A stretch of 27,987 bases of DNA from a virus (IMGVR_UViG_3300017903_002839:1-27987); one strand, 5' to 3'; positions 2,438 to 25,423 are shown, numbered from the stretch's first letter. Notes: generated by a model from the sequence alone, not told the origin. A program made the numbers and translations.

Positions 2438-2478
2438 GAGTGGTGTGACTACCTAAGAATTTCACACCACTCTTTTTT
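2438..2478 (+). terminator. Intrinsic terminator
   Basis: Perfect 11-bp stem GAGTGGTGTGA / TCACACCACTC, 13-nt loop, then TTTTTT. Confidence 0.85.
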
Positions 2479-2507
2479 ACTAGCAGTTTATATCTCTAAA
2501 ATTTTGG

Positions 2508-2513
2508 TAAATA
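2508..2513 (+). promoter_or_regulatory. Late promoter core TAAATA driving structured leader
   Basis: GGTAAATA about 5 nt before the first base of the predicted RNA structure. Confidence 0.6.
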
Positions 2514-2518
2514 CACAC

Positions 2519-2607
2519 AGTTCAAACGTGCTTTGACATCAAGTCAAAGACTTATGCGGATAACCACCGCGTAGCCAGGAGAACTGGCATTGGACTCCTA
2601 TAAGGAG
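2519..2607 (+). ncRNA. Structured cis-regulatory 5' leader (four-way junction plus SD-sequestering hairpin)
   Basis: P1 AGTTCAA(2519-25)/TTGGACT(2590-96); P2 CTTTGAC/GTCAAAG; P3 TATGCGG/CCGCGTA; P4 GCCAG/CTGGC; alternative CTCCT-ata-AGGAG hairpin over the SD. Confidence 0.65.
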
Positions 2608-2614
2608 AAAAAAA

Positions 2615-3049
2615 ATGGGAAGACCTATAAGAAAAGACAGAATGGTTAGCGGATCAAATGACTTCGGTGGAGACAACGAAGGAAAGATCGCAGTAACGGC
2701 TTACAGAACATTTGGTGGATCTAAAGTTGATTCTACTACAGCATATATCGTAGCACAGAGATCATCTAAAACTTTTAAAGTTCACTTAGACGATTCTACT
2801 GAAGTTCTAATGCAATTGAAAGCAGTTGCTCCAGGCTCTCTTGCCAACGACAACAGCACAGGACTCGGTGAGTTCACAGTGCAAGGTATCTTAGACGACT
2901 CAACTGTTGTTTACATCAGTAAGTTCCACAACAACACTGTACAATACGTCACAGCGGCTAGTGCCACTGGCAGTGCACCATATGTGAGAAATGCTGAAGG
3001 TACTGACGAAGGACAAGTCGCTGGTAAAGTTAACATCAACGTCTTGTAA
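2615..3049 (+). CDS. Putative virion structural protein (144 aa; possible head decoration)
   Basis: SD AGGAG; beta-rich, small-residue composition; codon usage like the capsid gene; located between capsid and fibre genes. Function is inferred. Confidence 0.7.
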   Translation: MGRPIRKDRMVSGSNDFGGDNEGKIAVTAYRTFGGSKVDSTTAYIVAQRSSKTFKVHLDDSTEVLMQLKAVAPGSLANDNSTGLGEFTVQGILDDSTVVYISKFHNNTVQYVTAASATGSAPYVRNAEGTDEGQVAGKVNINVL

Positions 3050-3070
3050 TAATACAAACACGTGCATTTT

Positions 3071-3096
3071 GGGGGAGTTACACGCTCCCCCATTTT
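3071..3096 (+). terminator. Intrinsic terminator
   Basis: GGGGGAG-ttacacg-CTCCCCC followed by ATTTT. Confidence 0.7.
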
Positions 3097-3099
3097 CTA

Positions 3100-3107
3100 T
3101 ATAAATA
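3100..3107 (+). promoter_or_regulatory. T4 late promoter TATAAATA
   Basis: Exact T4 late consensus, 6 nt before ATG 3114; no SD in between. Confidence 0.75.
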
Positions 3108-3113
3108 CTGCAA

Positions 3114-3887
3114 ATGTCGAAAACAATAAGAACATCAAACAATTTAACGATAGACGCCGCGGGTGATGTCATCATTGATGCTGACAACGCCGATATAAAA
3201 CTACAGGACGGCGGCACAGAATTTGGTAGAATCAGCAGGGTAACGTCAGACTTGGTCATCAAGTCAATGGGCACTAATAATGATATTCTGTTGAAAGGCC
3301 TAGATGGCTCTTCAACAATCACAGCACTTCAACTAGACATGAGTGAGAACGGAAATGCCATATTCAGTGGCAACGTAACCGCCACAGATGTCACTGCAAA
3401 CAGTTTGACAACCAACGTAATAAGTTCAAATGGTTCCAATGCCAACATCAGCATCCAACCAAGCGGTACTGGCTCTGTGGAGATAGGCGCACTAGACATC
3501 AAGGGCACTTCAATATCATCCGCTGATTCTAGTAGAGTAAACATAAATGAAGATGTTACTGTTACAGGCGTTTTGACTGCTTCAGGCACTATCCATGGCG
3601 TGCAAAACCTGACTGGCTCAGGTAGCACAGAAGTCATAAATTTGACTGACACGGTGACGTTGCTAACAACAACCGGAGCACAAAACTTTTCATTAGCAAA
3701 TGGCACAGAAGGACAGATAAAGATAATCTCAATGAAGGTCGACGGCGGCGATGCTACCGTGACTCCAGCAACCTTTGTCAATGGAACAAGTATAACATTC
3801 GACAGTGTCAATGACACAATGACACTGCTCTATCAATCCACTGGATGGATCGTTCTTGCACAACAAAACACAACTGTAAATGCATAG
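3114..3887 (+). CDS. Fibre/whisker-like virion structural protein
   Basis: T/S/G/D-rich beta-strand repeats; SNANISIQPSGTG module shared with neighbouring fibre genes. Confidence 0.7.
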   Translation: MSKTIRTSNNLTIDAAGDVIIDADNADIKLQDGGTEFGRISRVTSDLVIKSMGTNNDILLKGLDGSSTITALQLDMSENGNAIFSGNVTATDVTANSLTTNVISSNGSNANISIQPSGTGSVEIGALDIKGTSISSADSSRVNINEDVTVTGVLTASGTIHGVQNLTGSGSTEVINLTDTVTLLTTTGAQNFSLANGTEGQIKIISMKVDGGDATVTPATFVNGTSITFDSVNDTMTLLYQSTGWIVLAQQNTTVNA

Positions 3888-4349: not shown

Positions 4350-5363
4350 ATGGCATTTAGGAAACTAGTAGGATCTTATAAAGATTACGATTTAGCAACA
4401 CACATCATTGAAGATGGATATCTAGCAGTAGACGTAGACACAGGCAGTCTAAGGATAGGAGATGGAGTGACTCCTGGCGGAACCGAGGTATCGGCCGGAG
4501 GTGGAGGCTCATCAAGTAGCCTTGGTGATTTGTCTGCAACAGGATCAACACTTTCGGCGCCTTCAAATGCAAACCTTACATTAACAACATCTGGGACCGG
4601 CAGTGTGGTTATAAATGACACATTCCAAATAGGTTCAGGAGCAGGTGTCACAACCATACTAGATGAAGATAATATGAGTTCAAATAGTGCGACTGCACTA
4701 GCCACCCAACAGTCAATAAAAGCGTACATCGATAGTGAAATATCAGGAGTTGGTGGAGGTGGTAGCACAGGTGATATTTCATTTGTTGGTTCAACAATAG
4801 CATCACCAAGTAACGCAGATCTTACTTTGACATCAAGCGGCGGGAATGTCGTCATCGAAGGCATAAGGGTGGCAGGTACCACTATATCAACGGAAGATTC
4901 AAGTGCAGGAGTGCAAATATCAGGTAACCTTATTCCAAGTCAAAATGGCGTGTTTCAATTAGGTAGTTCCACACGTAGATGGCAGACTGCATTTTTATCT
5001 GCAGAAACTTTAGATATAGGTGGAGCAACTATTTCTTCGGATGGAACAGGCACAATTGAAATTGCGGCAACCGGTGCTACACTACCAACAGGTAGTAAAG
5101 TGGCAACAAACCCAATATCTATACTTGGCGCAACAGGTAGGACAGCCGTAAGACCAGTTCAAAATGTCAAAGTTTTTGTGAGTGATGGTAGTACTTCGTT
5201 CACCGACGCACAACTTTTGGCCAAAGATGGAGATCTAAGCCTTGAATTTAACGCAACAGTAGAGACTATACCTGTATACACAGAGGCAGGACAATCATTT
5301 ACACTTTCAAACGGCACTGCATTAAGTGATCAGGTCACTGATGTGACCCTATTCCAATTTTAA
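4350..5363 (+). CDS. Fibre-like virion structural protein
   Basis: SD AGGAG; N-terminal G.L..D..TG.LRIGDGVTPGG fibre-anchor-like motif; LDED...ATQQSIKAY and P.....F.LGSST.RW modules typical of phage fibres. Confidence 0.75.
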   Translation: MAFRKLVGSYKDYDLATHIIEDGYLAVDVDTGSLRIGDGVTPGGTEVSAGGGGSSSSLGDLSATGSTLSAPSNANLTLTTSGTGSVVINDTFQIGSGAGVTTILDEDNMSSNSATALATQQSIKAYIDSEISGVGGGGSTGDISFVGSTIASPSNADLTLTSSGGNVVIEGIRVAGTTISTEDSSAGVQISGNLIPSQNGVFQLGSSTRRWQTAFLSAETLDIGGATISSDGTGTIEIAATGATLPTGSKVATNPISILGATGRTAVRPVQNVKVFVSDGSTSFTDAQLLAKDGDLSLEFNATVETIPVYTEAGQSFTLSNGTALSDQVTDVTLFQF

Positions 5364-5441: not shown

Positions 5442-8021
5442 ATGGCAGATAAAACACCGGTACGAGTAGTCTTTAACAGTTCAAATGTAGCCACTGGAAT
5501 GGCAGAGTTCCAAACAGGTGAAACTGTACCAATAGCAAACGGTGGAACGGGTCTAAGTTCAATTGGTTCTGCAGGACAAGTTCTCAGAACAAATGCGGCA
5601 GGTAATGCCCTAGAGTTCGCAACGCTAGAAGATCTAGCAGATATTGTATCAATTGGATCAACACTTACAGCGCCGTCTAACGCGGATTTTAACATAACCA
5701 CGGCAGGCACTGGTAACATAGTTTTAAATGATTTAAGCATAAGCGATAACACAATTTCGACCAATAGATCCAACGATGATCTTCACATCGACGCAAGTGG
5801 CACAGGAACAGTCGTCCTCGAGAACCTTAAAATAGGCACTAGTGGATCTACAGTAACAACGATACTAGATGAGGACAACATGTCCACTAACAGTGCCACA
5901 GCACTTGCGACCCAACAGTCAATAAAGGCCTACGTAGATTCAGAAGTTGGTTCGGTGAGCACAACCGCTATCAGCCAACTCGACAGTAATGTTACAGTGG
6001 CAGATGCAGGTTCAGGTACAATCACAGTCACGGTTGATGGATCTACCATTGGAACTTTTAACGCATCAGGTTTACAATTAGGAGGCTCGGGTGCAAGAGT
6101 AACAACTGTCTTAGACGAAGACGGATTCGACTCAAACAGTGATACATCATTAGCAACACAGCAGAGTATCAAAGCATATGTTGATGCACAAATCACAGCA
6201 GAAGATCTTGATGTTACGGCAGATGATTCGACTGCAATAGCAATTGACCTAGATTCGGAAGTTTTACATTTTGCCGGAGGAAACGGAATAAGCACATCCG
6301 TAAGTGGTAACACAGTGACCACGGCCATAGACTCCGGCACAGTTGTAACTTTAACAGATTCGCAGACATTAACAAACAAGGTTTTAACCAATCCAACAAT
6401 TAATGCATTTAGTGGCACAGGAAACGGAAGTATTACAGGAACATTGAGCCTAGTCACAACCACCACAGATGATTCGTTTTTAATCACAACCACTGAAGAC
6501 TCAAACAGTGCCGCACCTGTTATCACATTAAAAAGGAATAGTTCGAGTCCTGCTGATTCTGACTACCTGGGTAGGATTAAATTCAAAGGCGAGAACGATG
6601 CCGACCAAGAAGTCCAATATGGCACAATATCTGGAAAAATCCTAGATGCCTCAGACGGCACAGAAGACGGTGCGATAGAATTTAACGTTAAGAAGGCAGG
6701 ATCCAACAATATCGCAATGAGGCTTAATAGTGACGAACTAAAATTGTTGAATGGCACAGGCATTGATGTTGATGGCACCTCGGTTTTAGACGGCGTTACG
6801 ATCACAGACAACACAGTATCAACAAATGAATCAAATTCACCTTTAGAACTTAAAGCAAACGGAACAGGAGCGGTAAAAGTTGTATCCGGTGGCGTCACAT
6901 TTACACTACCCACTACTGATGGCAGTGATGGTGATGTGCTTAAAACTGACGGTTCAGGAGCATTAAGTTTTGCTTCAAGCACGACAACCGCATCTGATGA
7001 TACAAGGGCAGTGGTTAAAAATAACAAATCAGTGGGTACTTCTGCGAGAACTATCGATTACTTCCAGGCCACAAGTGCTGACGTGGCTTTTTATTTTGTT
7101 GCATTAAGTGATTTGACCAATGACCATTCTAGTGCGTCAATATTCACTGTGGCACACAACAACTCAGATGCATTCGTAGGTGCACCAAGGGGTGGTGCAT
7201 CAGGCACTGCCAATACACTACCAAGCACAGAAGCCGACATATCAAGTGCCCAAGTGAGGGTAAAAGTAACGGCACCAAGTGCAGATTCTAAATTAAGTTA
7301 TTACAAGATCCCATTATCAACAGCAAACACATCTGACGCTACATCAGGTGTGACTGTCACCACTTCAAACACTGATGTTGACTCCGCTTCGGAAAGCATA
7401 GACACATTTGCCCATGCATCATTCAGAGCGGCAAAATATTTCATATTGGTGGACAATGACAGTAAAACAGAAACAGGTGTTGTAGAAGCGTTGGTTGTAC
7501 ACAATGGATCAGATGCATTTATTACACAGTATGGTAACGTCAACTCAGGTAACCAAGATAAGATTGTTTTATCAGCGGCCATAAGCGGAAGCAACGTTGT
7601 GGTTTCAGCGTCAGGTAACGAACCAAACTTATCACTAAAGATACATAAAACTTTACTGTCAGACTCTATGACAGCGACATCAAACGCAAATCAAAAAATA
7701 ATAGGAGCAACCACTGTCAGTTCAAGTGCCACAGCATTCGATGACTTCGACTTGGATGACGCCACAGCCGCAGTTTATTATATTGTTGGAGGAAATTCCA
7801 GTGAAGGAACATTCAGTGTGCAAGAGGTTTATTGTGCAGGTGCTCCAGGAGAGGCATCCGTATCACAAGGTCCTTTCGTGTCAACAAAGGCGAGTACACA
7901 ACTAAACTTTACAGCGGCGTTCAAGTCAGATGCTGACAATAGTTTAGAATTGAGCGTGTCTTCTACATCGGGCGGCTCAACCACTGTGAATGCATACAGA
8001 ATAAACTGTCTAGCAGAATAA
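5442..8021 (+). CDS. Long tail-fibre-like structural protein (859 aa)
   Basis: PIANGGTG motif, two LDED...ATQQSIKAYVD modules, TLPTTDGSDGDVLKTDGSGALSF fibre motif, and three C-terminal repeats of a D.F.......A.Y domain. Confidence 0.8.
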   Translation: MADKTPVRVVFNSSNVATGMAEFQTGETVPIANGGTGLSSIGSAGQVLRTNAAGNALEFATLEDLADIVSIGSTLTAPSNADFNITTAGTGNIVLNDLSISDNTISTNRSNDDLHIDASGTGTVVLENLKIGTSGSTVTTILDEDNMSTNSATALATQQSIKAYVDSEVGSVSTTAISQLDSNVTVADAGSGTITVTVDGSTIGTFNASGLQLGGSGARVTTVLDEDGFDSNSDTSLATQQSIKAYVDAQITAEDLDVTADDSTAIAIDLDSEVLHFAGGNGISTSVSGNTVTTAIDSGTVVTLTDSQTLTNKVLTNPTINAFSGTGNGSITGTLSLVTTTTDDSFLITTTEDSNSAAPVITLKRNSSSPADSDYLGRIKFKGENDADQEVQYGTISGKILDASDGTEDGAIEFNVKKAGSNNIAMRLNSDELKLLNGTGIDVDGTSVLDGVTITDNTVSTNESNSPLELKANGTGAVKVVSGGVTFTLPTTDGSDGDVLKTDGSGALSFASSTTTASDDTRAVVKNNKSVGTSARTIDYFQATSADVAFYFVALSDLTNDHSSASIFTVAHNNSDAFVGAPRGGASGTANTLPSTEADISSAQVRVKVTAPSADSKLSYYKIPLSTANTSDATSGVTVTTSNTDVDSASESIDTFAHASFRAAKYFILVDNDSKTETGVVEALVVHNGSDAFITQYGNVNSGNQDKIVLSAAISGSNVVVSASGNEPNLSLKIHKTLLSDSMTATSNANQKIIGATTVSSSATAFDDFDLDDATAAVYYIVGGNSSEGTFSVQEVYCAGAPGEASVSQGPFVSTKASTQLNFTAAFKSDADNSLELSVSSTSGGSTTVNAYRINCLAE

Positions 8022-8080: not shown

Positions 8081-10231
8081 ATGACAACACGAAACTTTAG
8101 AGTAAACAACGGACTTGAAGTTGGTAACATCACTATATCAGCAAGTGCTAATACCATAACAGGTCTAGCCACAGCGGCACCAAGTGCTGACGGAGACGTG
8201 GCAAACAAGAAATACGTTGATGACGAAATCGCGGCGCTTTCGACAACAGCCATAACACAAGGGAACAGTAACGTAACAGTAACTGACTCGGGCACAGGTG
8301 CAATCACAGTATCGGCAGATGGTACAGAAGTTGCAAACCTTGCCGTGGCGGCTACAACCATCACTGCCTCAGGTGCAATCAACCTTACAGCAGGTACAGA
8401 CGTAGTCATACCAGCCAACATTGGAGTTACATTTGGATCTGGTGAGAAGATCGAGGGTGACAACACGGACCTTACAGTTACATCAGGTGCCAAGATAAAC
8501 CTTACGGCAACTTCAGATGTACACATTCCACAAAACGTAGGTTTGGTATTTGACGCCAACGGATCAGAGAAGATCGAGTCCAACGACACAGACTTGACAA
8601 TAAACTCAGGTGCTGACATAAATCTTACAGCGACAGCAGATGTGAACATACCAGCAGACGTTGGTATTACGTTTGGTAACGATGCGGAAAAAATCGAAGG
8701 TGACGGTACAGACTTAACCATCACTGGTAACAATATTAAATTGACACCAACGGCTGATACAATTTTAGCAGTAAACACTGGTTTAGTTCTTGACGGATCA
8801 GGTGATGAAAAAATCGAATCTGATGGAACAGACATTTCAATCAGTGTAGGTGCAAACGGTGACATCAACATACCGGCAAATATTGGTTTGACTTTTGGTA
8901 ACGACGGTGAGAAGATCGAGGGTGACGGAACTGACCTGACCATTTCAGGTAACAACATCAACCTAACAGCAACAGCAGATGTAGTCATACCAGCAGACGT
9001 TGGAATAACATTTGGATCTGGTGAGAAGATCGAGGGTGACAACACGGACCTTACAGTTACATCAGGTGCCAAGATAAACCTTACAGCAACGTCAGATGTA
9101 CACATTCCACAAAACGTAGGTTTAGTGTTTGACGCAAACGGAAGTGAGAAAATTGAATCTAATGACACAGATTTGACAATCAACTCAGGTGCAAAAATAA
9201 ACCTTACAGCAACGTCAGACGTACACGTTCCGGCTAACGTTGGTATAGTTTTTGATGCAAACGCAAGTGAGAAGATCGAGTCCAACGACACAGACTTGAC
9301 AGTTAACTCAGGTGCGGACATCAACTTGACTGCGACGGCGGATGTTAACATACCGGCAAACGTTGGTGTAACATTTGGTGACGATGGAGAGAAGATCGAA
9401 GGTAATGGTACAAACTTAACCATTGCGTCTTCAGGTCTATGTACAATCACAGCAACTGGTGAAACGGTAGTAACTAACAACTTAAGAATTGGTGGTAACT
9501 TGACTGTGGATGGTACTGAAACAATCGTAAACACAACGACACTATCAGTTGAAGATAACATCATTGAACTTAACAGGAACGTATCAGCGGCATCAGGCAT
9601 GCCAAGTATATCTGGAATCAGAGCAAACAGGGGTGAAGGTTCGACTGCGACTGAACTAGCACTTTACTGGGCTTGGGATGAAAACTTTGCAGACGACGGT
9701 ACAACAACACACGGAAACGTGGGTGGTGCCTGGACGGCATTCGCGGCACCAAGAGGTGATGAATCAGGCTTCTCGGCTGATTCCTTAATTGACATTAGGG
9801 CGAACGTGGTACACGCCACTGCAACATCGGCTCAGTACGCGGACGTTGCCGAGCGTTTCGAAGCAGACGCTCCTATGTCAGCAGGTGCAGTAGTAGAAGT
9901 AGGCGGTGACGCGGAAATAACAGAAACAACATCGGATCTGTCTGAGAATGTTTTTGGTGTAATTTCTGAACAACCAGCATACGCCATGAACGCCGGGGCA
10001 GGTAACAATGACACACACCCATTTGTGGCGATGACAGGTAGAACACCAGTTAGAGTTACAGGTCCCGTAACAAAAGGGCAAAGACTTGTTACTTCATCAG
10101 TTAAAGGTTGTGCTAGAGCAGTAGCGACAGGTGAATCAATTTCACCATTCAACGTTATTGGTAGAGCACTAGAAAGTTCAACAGACGCAGGAATCAAATT
10201 GGTAAACTGTGCAGTGAGAACTAACAACTAA
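8081..10231 (+). CDS. Tail fibre/spike with nine tandem ~39-aa repeats and probable C-terminal intramolecular chaperone (autocleaving) domain
   Basis: DVANKKYVD motif; nine EKIE-containing repeats; GNLTVDGTETIVNTTTLSVEDNII motif; AQYADVAERFEAD...GVIS..PAY..N...GRTPVRVTG...IGRALE resembles Peptidase_G2-type chaperone tails. Confidence 0.82.
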   Translation: MTTRNFRVNNGLEVGNITISASANTITGLATAAPSADGDVANKKYVDDEIAALSTTAITQGNSNVTVTDSGTGAITVSADGTEVANLAVAATTITASGAINLTAGTDVVIPANIGVTFGSGEKIEGDNTDLTVTSGAKINLTATSDVHIPQNVGLVFDANGSEKIESNDTDLTINSGADINLTATADVNIPADVGITFGNDAEKIEGDGTDLTITGNNIKLTPTADTILAVNTGLVLDGSGDEKIESDGTDISISVGANGDINIPANIGLTFGNDGEKIEGDGTDLTISGNNINLTATADVVIPADVGITFGSGEKIEGDNTDLTVTSGAKINLTATSDVHIPQNVGLVFDANGSEKIESNDTDLTINSGAKINLTATSDVHVPANVGIVFDANASEKIESNDTDLTVNSGADINLTATADVNIPANVGVTFGDDGEKIEGNGTNLTIASSGLCTITATGETVVTNNLRIGGNLTVDGTETIVNTTTLSVEDNIIELNRNVSAASGMPSISGIRANRGEGSTATELALYWAWDENFADDGTTTHGNVGGAWTAFAAPRGDESGFSADSLIDIRANVVHATATSAQYADVAERFEADAPMSAGAVVEVGGDAEITETTSDLSENVFGVISEQPAYAMNAGAGNNDTHPFVAMTGRTPVRVTGPVTKGQRLVTSSVKGCARAVATGESISPFNVIGRALESSTDAGIKLVNCAVRTNN
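8375..9425 (+). repeat. Intragenic tandem repeat, 9 units of about 114-120 nt; includes an exact 77-nt duplication (8429-8505 = 9008-9084)
   Basis: Direct reading of the DNA and protein: consensus INLTAT.DV.IP.NVG..F...EKIE.D.TDLT. Confidence 0.92.
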
Positions 10232-13366: not shown

Positions 13367-13400
13367 CATATTTATTGCCTAGCCAAAGGCTATAAATATG
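13367..13400. promoter_or_regulatory. Back-to-back divergent late promoters
   Basis: Minus-strand TAAATA at 13374-13369 and plus-strand TATAAATA at 13391-13398; 9-bp inverted repeat CATATTTAT/ATAAATATG. Confidence 0.75.
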
Positions 13401-18875: not shown

Positions 18876-18898
18876 TTTTGAATAAATAGGAGAAACAG

Positions 18899-23818: not shown

Positions 23819-25411
23819 ATGGCGTATGTATCACTAGATAGCGACCAAATTAAGAAGGCGCACAAGAAACACAAATACACCAAAGAGCAAGTTGAACAAC
23901 TTGAGAAGTGTATGGATGAGACCAACGGCCCTTTATATTTCATGAAACAGTTCATGAAAATACAACATCCTACAAAAGGAGAGATGAAGTTTAAACCTTT
24001 CCCGTATCAAGAAAGATTGGTTGAAGCATACAATAAACATAGATTCAGTATTTCAATGTTACCACGACAGACAGGAAAAACAACCTGTGCATCGGGATAC
24101 CTGATATGGTACGCCATGTTCAAACCTGATTCACAGATACTAATCGCGGCACACAAATACGCAGGTGCATCAGACATTATGTCAAGGGTGCGTTACGCTT
24201 ACGAAATGTTGCCCAGTTGGATCAAAGCGGGAGTAACACAATACAACAGAAACAGCATAGAATTTGACAACGGTTCAAAGATAATGGCAACCACAACAAC
24301 TGAGAACACAGGAAGGGGTATGTCACTTACACTGATATACTGTGATGAGTTTGCATTCGTGCAACCACCAGAGAAAGCAAAAGAATTTTGGACATCATTA
24401 TCACCGACCCTATCAACTGGAGGTAAATGTTTGATTACTTCTACGCCCAACAGTGACGAAGACCAATTTGCTATGATTTGGAAGGAAGCCAACAAAAGAT
24501 TCGATGAATATGGCAACGACAAGATAGTAGGAACAAACGGTTTCTACGCCATGAAGGCACACTGGAGTGAACACCCCGACAGGGACGAGACGTGGGCAGA
24601 AACTGAAAAATCTAGAATAGGTGAAGAACGATTTAGAAGGGAACACGAATGTGAATTCTTGATATTTGATGAAACATTGATATCCAGTTTAGTGTTGGCA
24701 GACATGGAAGGCGTGGCACCTGTGGAAACCACAGGACAGGTGCGTTGGTTCAAACGTCCTACGCCTGGCAACACATACCTAACAAGTCTTGATCCAAGCA
24801 TGGGTACTGGTGGCGACTACGCCGCTATACAGGTTTTTGAACTACCAACATTCGAACAGGTTGCCGAATGGCACCATAATCAAACACCAATGAATCAGCA
24901 GGTAAGAATACTGCAAGGAATCAACAAGCACATACATGATACAATCATGGAAAAAGATTCGTCAGCGACTCCACAGATATTTTACTCAATGGAAAATAAT
25001 TCAATTGGAGAAGCCGCACTAATGAGGGTAATGGATATAGGAGAAGAAAATATACAAGGAATGTTCCTATCAGAGCCTATAAGGAAGGGTCACAGACGTA
25101 AGTTCAGGAGAGGATTCAACACAACTGCAAAACACAAAATAGACGCTTGTACTAAATTCAAAGAACTCATTGAGAACGACAAGATGAAGATTAACTCGCA
25201 ACTCCTGATCTCTGAGCTAAAGGACTTTGTTGCATCGGGGATCAGCTGCAACGCCAAACCAGGAGAGCACGATGATCTAGTAAGTGCATGTTTGTTAATG
25301 ACCCGTATGATGAAAGTTTTAGCAGATTTTGACCCTAAAATATTTGAAAAATGGACAGATAGGACTAGCCAAATCACTCCAATGCCAATCTTCGGATCGT
25401 TTACAGGTTAA
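23819..25411 (+). CDS. gp17: Terminase large subunit (T4 gp17-like)
   Basis: Q-motif YQ, Walker A PRQTGKTT, Walker B LIYCDEFAF, motif III ITSTPN, nuclease LDPSMGTGGDY and HDDLV. Confidence 0.97.
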   Translation: MAYVSLDSDQIKKAHKKHKYTKEQVEQLEKCMDETNGPLYFMKQFMKIQHPTKGEMKFKPFPYQERLVEAYNKHRFSISMLPRQTGKTTCASGYLIWYAMFKPDSQILIAAHKYAGASDIMSRVRYAYEMLPSWIKAGVTQYNRNSIEFDNGSKIMATTTTENTGRGMSLTLIYCDEFAFVQPPEKAKEFWTSLSPTLSTGGKCLITSTPNSDEDQFAMIWKEANKRFDEYGNDKIVGTNGFYAMKAHWSEHPDRDETWAETEKSRIGEERFRREHECEFLIFDETLISSLVLADMEGVAPVETTGQVRWFKRPTPGNTYLTSLDPSMGTGGDYAAIQVFELPTFEQVAEWHHNQTPMNQQVRILQGINKHIHDTIMEKDSSATPQIFYSMENNSIGEAALMRVMDIGEENIQGMFLSEPIRKGHRRKFRRGFNTTAKHKIDACTKFKELIENDKMKINSQLLISELKDFVASGISCNAKPGEHDDLVSACLLMTRMMKVLADFDPKIFEKWTDRTSQITPMPIFGSFTG

Positions 25412-25423
25412 TAAATACACTAT

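Follow-up and report, generated by a model that had tools for sequence, protein, structure and literature searches.

Freshwater-2 is a catalogued RNA family (Rfam RF02980) that reportedly goes back to the 2017 comparative screen by Weinberg et al., which yielded 224 motifs, and that is said to have been described originally only from aquatic, mainly freshwater, metagenomes, upstream of genes without a known domain. Among other structured leaders, the pseudoknot of the E. coli rpsO (S15) operator involves the start region, and the ompA leader is a 5′-terminal stabiliser stem-loop, a type of element that stabilises messages. Passages of PMC3014915 mention the rpsO operator pseudoknot and state that gp32 and gp43 of phage T4 repress their own translation through mRNA leaders. 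The name freshwater-2 does not occur in the main text of PMC5737381, and a full-text search on it returned no paper about the RNA, a search that did not cover the supplement with the presumed original description. Here we consider a complete IMG/VR virus record, IMGVR_UViG_3300017903_002839:1-27987 (27,987 bases, hereafter the window; features lie on the + strand unless stated otherwise), in which a preliminary description had drawn a four-way-junction RNA ahead of a gene for a 144-amino-acid (144-aa) protein at 2615..3049. The feature is real and was correctly drawn, and it is already known as a member of a catalogued Rfam family.

A cmscan search against Rfam 15, which the preliminary description had itself proposed, matched 2532..2617 to RF02980 (freshwater-2, type Cis-reg) over the full model (1-84 of 84), with 79.3 bits against a gathering score of 49.9 and E 7e-11 (7.4e-11). 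The three hairpins of the model are those termed P2, P3 and P4 here, followed after a linker by the Shine-Dalgarno (SD) sequence AAGGAG (2602-2607) and the AUG at 2615, both within the match; the 5′ strand of the closing helix P1 and the promoter box fall upstream of the model, which begins at P2. Besides RF02980, Rfam families listed at E ≤ 10 over 2350-2750 were chance-level noise only. The leader is, with near certainty, a freshwater-2 RNA, sharing with the family its three hairpins, the UUAUGCGG...CCGCGUAG stem, the xAGAAC loop box, and the AAGGAG and AUG. The earlier account had not recognised a known family and had held that a hit to an existing one would remove the novelty; given the full-length match, that novelty is therefore gone. 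The window copy differs in its setting, as it sits in a marine giant-phage fragment and its gene family is tied to virion proteins of Agrobacterium phage Atu_ph07.

Folded alone with ViennaRNA, the segment 2519-2596 adopts the four-way junction as both its minimum free energy (MFE) structure and its centroid, at -30.8 kcal/mol compared to -15.4 ± 2.7 in shuffles (z -5.69; none of 200 dinucleotide shuffles as good), and the full leader (2508-2617) reaches -32.6 kcal/mol (z -5.2). All four helices are present where they had first been placed. P1 (2519-2525/2590-2596, AGUUCAA/UUGGACU, 7 base pairs (bp) with one G-U) encloses the other three. The P2 hairpin (2528..2551) has 7 bp at 2531-2537/2543-2549, plus GU/AC at 2528-2529/2550-2551, a loop of 5 nucleotides (nt) and a variable sequence. 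The P3 hairpin (2553..2573) has a highly conserved stem of 7 bp at 2553-2559/2567-2573 (UAUGCGG/CCGCGUA) and the loop AUAACCA, and the P4 hairpin (2574..2588) has 5 bp at 2574-2578/2584-2588 and the loop GAGAA; the P4 loop box reads GAGAAC in the window and UAGAAC in most relatives. Invariant U-G wobbles in P3 and P1 mark the + strand RNA as the strand that folds. The G+C content (0.43-0.46 across the element versus 0.28-0.35 in the surrounding spacer) agrees with the earlier picture of a GC-rich element in an AT-rich spacer. With 78 nt and four helices the element could pass for a tRNA-like or otherwise processed stable RNA, an option raised at the outset, though we give this next to no chance: ARAGORN detects neither a tRNA nor a tmRNA in the window, the sizes of arms and loops are wrong for a tRNA (a 7-bp P2 with a 5-nt loop, a 5-nt P4 loop), the cloverleaf-closing P1 is lineage-specific, the fold continues directly into the SD and AUG of the gene, and nothing indicates processing.

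The 5′ bases AGUUC (2519-2523) of the window could pair with GAACU (2581-2585) in the P4 region, and many leaders have predicted 5′ ends (GUC, GUUC, UCUAG, GUUAAAGG) that could often pair with the conserved P4 box CCUAGAAC, for instance L010, L036, L063, L086, L093 and L120. A pseudoknot between this 5′ tail and the P4 loop box (CUAGAAC) gains no support by eye: the box variants UAAAAC, UAGAAU and UUGAAC occur without a matching change in the tail.

Downstream of the junction, CUCCU (2595-2599) pairs with AGGAG (2603-2607) to give the hairpin CUCCU-AUA-AGGAG (2595..2607) over the SD, as had been described. This hairpin has little stability of its own (-5.1 kcal/mol, z -1.25), 24 of 200 shuffles being as good. 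It had been said that P1 and this hairpin partly exclude each other; they do overlap, by 2 nt, but the exclusion is slight at most, since the MFE structure of 2508-2617 contains both P1 (6 bp) and the SD hairpin (4 bp), stacked end to end.

Covariation in the leaders of homologs, another check that had been suggested, was assessed in an alignment (A3) of 89 distinct leaders of the window type, made up of 86 leaders from the 88 found (all but L123, which is the window itself, and L224), that of the window, and L157 and L178. It holds 212 double-change cells compared to 60 ± 9 in shuffles (0 of 500 as high), and controls with slid pairings collapse. Pairs changed on both sides number 7 of 9 in P2 (81.1% of cells paired), 2 of 7 in P3 (100%) and 4 of 5 in P4 (98.7%), so that these three helices covary. 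There is nearly no covariation in P1 (1 of 7 pairs, in 2 cells; 98.1% paired), in which 3 of the 7 pairs are constant and 2 change on one strand only, or in the anti-SD hairpin (0 of 5; 98.0% paired), in which 2 pairs are invariant, 2 one-sided and 1 departs only by unpaired cells. A second alignment (A5), of 96 leaders that have no P1-type linker (from a set of 106, ten P1-like ones being dropped), has P3 paired in 99.9% of cells with 27 double-change cells, among them GC to AU (15), GC to UA (9) and CG to GC (2). The outer stem of P3 and the P4 loop box are nearly invariant while the proteins encoded downstream have a mean column identity of 21%; P2 varies freely.

Most of the family lacks P1 and the anti-SD hairpin. 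For instance, leaders of the type of L147, L150, L215 and L228, whose proteins are 66-69% identical to that of the window, pass from P4 straight to GGAGG, with neither P1 nor anti-SD. Within the lineages that have it, some changes speak for P1: L050 and L205 have, by eye, lost one base on each strand (AGUCAA/UUGGCU), which favours the helix. In L066, L173, L181, L184, L187 and L195 (also by eye) CAGAGCC or CAGAGCU pairs with GGCUCUG instead, and the anti-SD sequence is lost. A second clade of the family has the closing stem GUCAGAU/AUYGGAC, which differs from the window P1 by one U-A to C-G exchange and one new mismatch, and which is in the MFE structure of 6 of 8 usable leaders (10 tried). 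P1 is plausibly real in these lineages, but a lineage feature. A similar picture emerges from L301 and L303, whose proteins are 90% identical and whose modules between P4 and the SD (leaders at about 290-403) differ, one having a short A-rich linker and the other AUUGGACUACU... with a closing stem; this suggests an exchange of modules or a fast turnover of the leader.

These data bear directly on a small-molecule riboswitch, close to the riboswitch-like SD switch of the preliminary description, in which the RNA would flip between the P1 fold and the SD-hiding hairpin. A multi-stem junction beside an SD-complementary segment does resemble an aptamer with its expression platform, and the Rfam type is Cis-reg. 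However, P1 and the anti-SD hairpin occur together in the MFE structure rather than in mutually exclusive folds, and because both fit in one fold the reading as an SD switch is unsupported; the supposed switch helices hardly covary (1 of 7 pairs and 0 of 5) and are missing in most lineages. Moreover, the conserved bases lie in a stem and a hairpin loop, not in the junction, and the gene, a late one for a likely virion protein, has no link to metabolism. We regard a riboswitch as very improbable.

The RNA is bound to one gene family. The exact pattern of the P3 hairpin occurs in 119 stretches in IMG/VR (about 270 estimated for the whole collection), and in 114 of 120 pattern matches an SD and an open reading frame (ORF) starting with MGRP (MARP in L034 and L083, MGRA in L039) come next; the remaining six are two truncated loci, an unrelated ORF and three chance hits of high G+C. 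For the reverse test, loci were picked by the protein only and aligned by clade (A2 and A4). In the window's clade, where 160 loci were fetched and 150 were usable (one had no start found and nine too little upstream DNA), 149 have the conserved P3 hairpin and loop box; in the second clade 78 of 80 loci have them, and one exception there, L310, shows by eye a 6-bp variant of P3. Matching peptide patterns are estimated to occur in about 2000 IMG/VR stretches. Each of three relatives of 139-221 kb has one RNA and one gene of the MGRP family, and the RNA is single-copy in each genome piece searched. The linkage of the RNA to one gene family is near-exclusive.

Family genes are also found that have no such RNA. 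In L196, an IMG/VR contig fragment whose homolog is 52% identical to the window protein, a terminator and TATAAATA are followed 8 nt later by the ATG, with no SD and no freshwater-2 RNA, possibly a leaderless version of the gene. The second gene of a tandem family pair (L309:285-403) has an SD and no RNA because the DNA upstream of it encodes the C terminus of the first copy. Both family genes of Atu_ph07 have a ATAAATAC box and a short unstructured leader, without freshwater-2 RNA.

Among sampled loci, the RF02980 cut-off is reached by 16 of 20 in the window's clade and by 6 of 20 in the second. Many divergent leaders with the same core thus fall below it, and the family is therefore wider than the Rfam model. 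In cultured phages, a blastn search of 50,697 phage records with two leader types yielded chance-level matches only (best E 0.06), the covariance-model search not having been extended to that whole collection; applied to Atu_ph07 and Serratia phage BF, the model gave nothing above its cut-off (best 24.5 bits). That best match lies in Serratia phage BF (KY630187: 182159-182233, +; E 0.02), just before the scaffolding-protein gene, and is probably due to chance.

The gene itself (2615..3049) encodes a protein that starts MGRPIRK, for which we found 696 relatives at E ≤ 0.001 in the protein collection, all unnamed and none with a Pfam domain; PHROG and Pfam hold no family for its core. An alignment of 36 diverse relatives (A1), with the mean column identity of 21% given above, has M1, G2, R3, P4 and Q48 invariant. 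The AlphaFold2 model is all-beta with a predicted local distance difference test score (pLDDT) of 82.9. Foldseek found no match to it in the PDB at E ≤ 0.001, a sequence-profile search of the PDB gave nothing below E 0.85, and the ESM Atlas held no usable match; in a wide VIA structure comparison the best hits were small SH3/Tudor/KOW-like barrels, at a Z of 3.2 too weak for naming a fold. Searches with tblastn using this protein and a 326-aa relative against the phage collection gave no match. Matches among viral predicted structures (E 2e-6 to 8e-4) are uncharacterised proteins of uncultured phages, of Atu_ph07 and of Yersinia phage fHe-Yen9-04.

The A1 profile matches two genes of Atu_ph07 (E 1e-16 and 2.4e-9), whose products AUZ95257.1 and AUZ95225.1 both start with MGRP and are distant homologs annotated as hypothetical (MF403008: 360882-361862 and 336268-337680, both on the - strand), with computed masses of 35.15 and 52.32 kDa. 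The electrospray ionization tandem mass spectrometry (ESI-MS/MS) table for Atu_ph07 virions, as given in Table S5 of PMC6102473, has gp498 at 35,16 kDa (23 unique peptides, 75.5% coverage) and gp466 at 52,32 kDa (21 peptides, 62.8% coverage); we equate the homologs with these two abundant virion proteins by molecular weight only, as that table gives no accessions. With homologs in virions, the 144-aa product is therefore likely to be structural, and the gene was probably called rightly when it was first described as a structural one. In longer members of the family (200-420 aa), the conserved N terminus is separated from the equally conserved core at the C terminus by inserts rich in repeats. 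Such inserts are common in surface-exposed virion proteins.

The leader is set off as a transcription unit of its own. In T4, late transcription starts about 6 nt past the promoter box. Upstream of the gene is a TATAAATA-like box, GTAAATA (2507..2513; core TAAATA 2508-2513), with P1 beginning 5 nt after the core as had been noted, so that with the T4 spacing the late message would start at A2519 (2519..2519), the first base of P1. The box is kept in relatives: TAAATA is upstream of all 80 unique leaders found by the RNA pattern, and at 150 of 150 and 79 of 80 loci selected by protein alone in the two clades. For the Rak2-like giant phage CBB, PMC5259590 puts ATAAATA forward as the late promoter because it resembles that of T4. 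The window has 11 copies of ATAAATA compared to 5.6 ± 2.2 expected (11 is reached in 4 of 100 shuffles), and most of them immediately precede an ORF on the same strand. The terminators said to insulate the unit are both real by folding energy. The upstream unit is closed by an intrinsic terminator at 2438..2478 with an 11-bp stem, a 13-nt loop and a U run (2438-2472 plus the U run: -17.7 kcal/mol, z -5.21, 0 of 200 shuffles as good), which a consensus terminator scan missed because its loop exceeds 8 nt; the monocistronic unit is closed by another at 3070..3096 (3070-3092 plus the U run: -17.0 kcal/mol, z -5.10). A structured cis-acting leader before a late gene for a likely structural protein, as in the preliminary description, is supported.

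Contigs from RNA libraries (four runs, three studies) with at least 90% likeness cover parts of 2570-3137, although such contigs cannot show a start, a strand or transcription. None from these runs lies on 2405-2569, which counts neither for nor against the predicted start. In two runs of one study the contigs begin at 2570/2571, within the P3 stem (3′ strand), probably because the assembly broke there, at the hairpin or at a strain difference, and not because an RNA ends.

As to the genome, the window (CheckV completeness 8%) holds a T4-like structural module, with the major head protein (220-1392), two sheath-like genes, tube and neck proteins and the large terminase. At the DNA level the capsid gene shares 66-69% identity with its counterparts in giant phages such as PA5oct and Serratia phage BF. 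The three relatives of 139-221 kb are rated 39-63% complete, which would put the whole genome at about 350 kb, i.e. a giant myovirus. Near-identical contigs occur in runs labelled marine, and many of the relatives selected by protein are from contigs with marine in their name. Three large ORFs (4350-5363, 5442-8021 and 8081-10231) have weak or no PHROG matches to tail-fibre or tail-spike proteins and are likely host-recognition or whisker proteins. At 3101-3107, 13392-13398, 18882-18888 and 25411-25417, ATAAATA is 0-10 nt upstream of an ORF start (ATG at 3114, 13398, 18899 and 25424, respectively); with a T4-like spacing the messages from these four boxes would have no leader or almost none, unless the annotated starts are wrong.

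In leaders that have no P1-type linker the start site may be covered in another way. In A5 the last four bases of the P3 loop, mostly CCCA, can pair with UGGG of AUGGG in 90.1% of cells; three of these pairs vary on one side only, and there is one double change (GCCA:UGGC in L083, which has the MARP start). The other MARP gene, L034, has the loop GUCA and the pairing is still kept. Across 115 leaders without the P1-type linker the longest complementarity between loop and start averages 3.80, compared to 3.29 ± 0.06 for shuffled loops (maximum 3.47 of 200), and across 92 leaders of the window type it is 2.63 versus 2.65 ± 0.05, i.e. no excess; the window loop itself offers CCA:UGG only (3 bp). 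The lineages with CUCCU would therefore have mostly lost the pairing of loop and start. We take two alternative forms of masking as a lead and not as proof, the association being confounded by descent and the helices being short. A further arrangement is found in a lineage (L016, L024, L058, L099, L104, L109 and L119) where the SD lies in the 13-14-nt loop of a hairpin (AUGAUUA...UAAUCAU) whose 3′ strand overlaps the AUG. The register differs between members (AAUGAU/AUCAUU, AAUGU/ACAUU), which suggests that a helix has been maintained.

Our preferred reading, which we hold tentatively, is that the freshwater-2 leader is a protein-responsive translational operator, most plausibly an autogenous one, an option that the preliminary description had also named. 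The protein bound by the P3-P4 core would most plausibly be the unassembled product of the gene itself, and the bound product would keep the ribosome-binding site closed by stabilising the closure of the start region. In the window lineage the mask would be CUCCU paired to AGGAG and stacked on the closing stem P1, and in most other lineages the CCCA of the P3 loop paired to UGGG, that is, to the start codon and the next G. A specific binding partner is suggested because the P3 stem and P4 box are invariant when set against the divergent proteins and the free P2. We infer protein binding, repression, the start at A2519 and the late timing. The fuller scenario, with an autogenous operator in giant aquatic phages whose lineages have repeatedly swapped a P3-loop:AUGGG pseudoknot and the P1-stacked CUCCU:AGGAG hairpin, is more doubtful.

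Known autogenous operators offer a partial comparison. The gene 32 leader of T4 is likewise a structured leader on a T4-type phage message for one gene, and is a model for self-throttled translation. However, its operator is a pseudoknot with an unstructured A+U-rich tract, which has no sequence or structural likeness to freshwater-2, and gp32 binds nucleic acid whereas RNA affinity of the 144-aa protein is only hypothetical, so the comparison is one of analogy and not of membership. In most freshwater-2 lineages the pairing of P3 loop and AUGGG would involve the start region, as in rpsO; the window loop, by contrast, has only CCA:UGG in a lineage lacking any excess of complementarity, and no binding protein is known for freshwater-2.

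Several points weigh against an autogenous operator. The family proteins are not consistently basic, with a median isoelectric point (pI) of 6.2 (range 4.5-10.0) and only the first 12 residues always net positive, and no clear RNA-binding fold emerged from the barrel comparison (best Z 3.2) or from Foldseek against the PDB (no match at E ≤ 0.001). Homologs function without the RNA (both Atu_ph07 genes, L196 and the second copy in L309). The masking helices are short, with nearly invariant partners and almost no covariation, and the SD hairpin alone is matched by 24 of 200 shuffles. Finally, the conserved stem and loop bases could equally serve the tertiary structure of the RNA.

The core might instead be the operator of another trans-acting factor, either a translational repressor or activator of the phage (cf. 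RegA of T4) or a host RNA-binding protein. The conservation of P3 and P4 argues for this in the same way, the encoded protein has no clear RNA-binding fold, and T4-type phages possess general translational repressors, as passages of PMC3014915 state. A general regulator would be expected to act on several messages, though, and the RNA is single-copy in each genome piece searched; the RegA sites of T4, according to the same passages, are unstructured and A+U-rich, unlike this element, and no candidate factor was identified. We consider such a factor unlikely.

An explanation nearly as likely as the protein-responsive operator, if somewhat unlikely in itself, is that of a constitutive cis-acting leader with no trans factor, where the fold protects the late message from decay that depends on the 5′ end and the weak SD hairpin sets a fixed rate. 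If the start is at A2519 the very first base would be paired in P1, as in a stabiliser of the ompA type. The SD (AAGGAG) is strong with an A-rich spacer and is predicted to be open in many lineages (unpaired 0.8-0.99), and the linker between P4 and SD is swapped freely, as in L301 versus L303. On the other hand, stabiliser hairpins of the ompA type are not conserved in sequence, unlike the P3-P4 core of freshwater-2. A plain stabiliser needs no invariant P3 stem and P4 loop box across very divergent phages, P2 showing that any hairpin is tolerated, and the strict linkage to one gene family is left unexplained when many late genes have the same promoter box.

As the RNA is already in Rfam, the window carries little weight as a discovery. 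The contribution of the window and its relatives lies in the context now added to the motif. Freshwater-2 is a phage element, present in marine as well as freshwater data, that occupies the predicted leader of one gene, downstream of a T4-type late promoter box. The family of that gene has members in the virions of a cultured giant phage (Atu_ph07, by mass match), and around the ribosome-binding site the RNA has interchangeable, lineage-specific closing-stem and anti-SD modules. This context turns an orphan motif into a question that can be tested at the bench, namely whether the protein binds its own leader.

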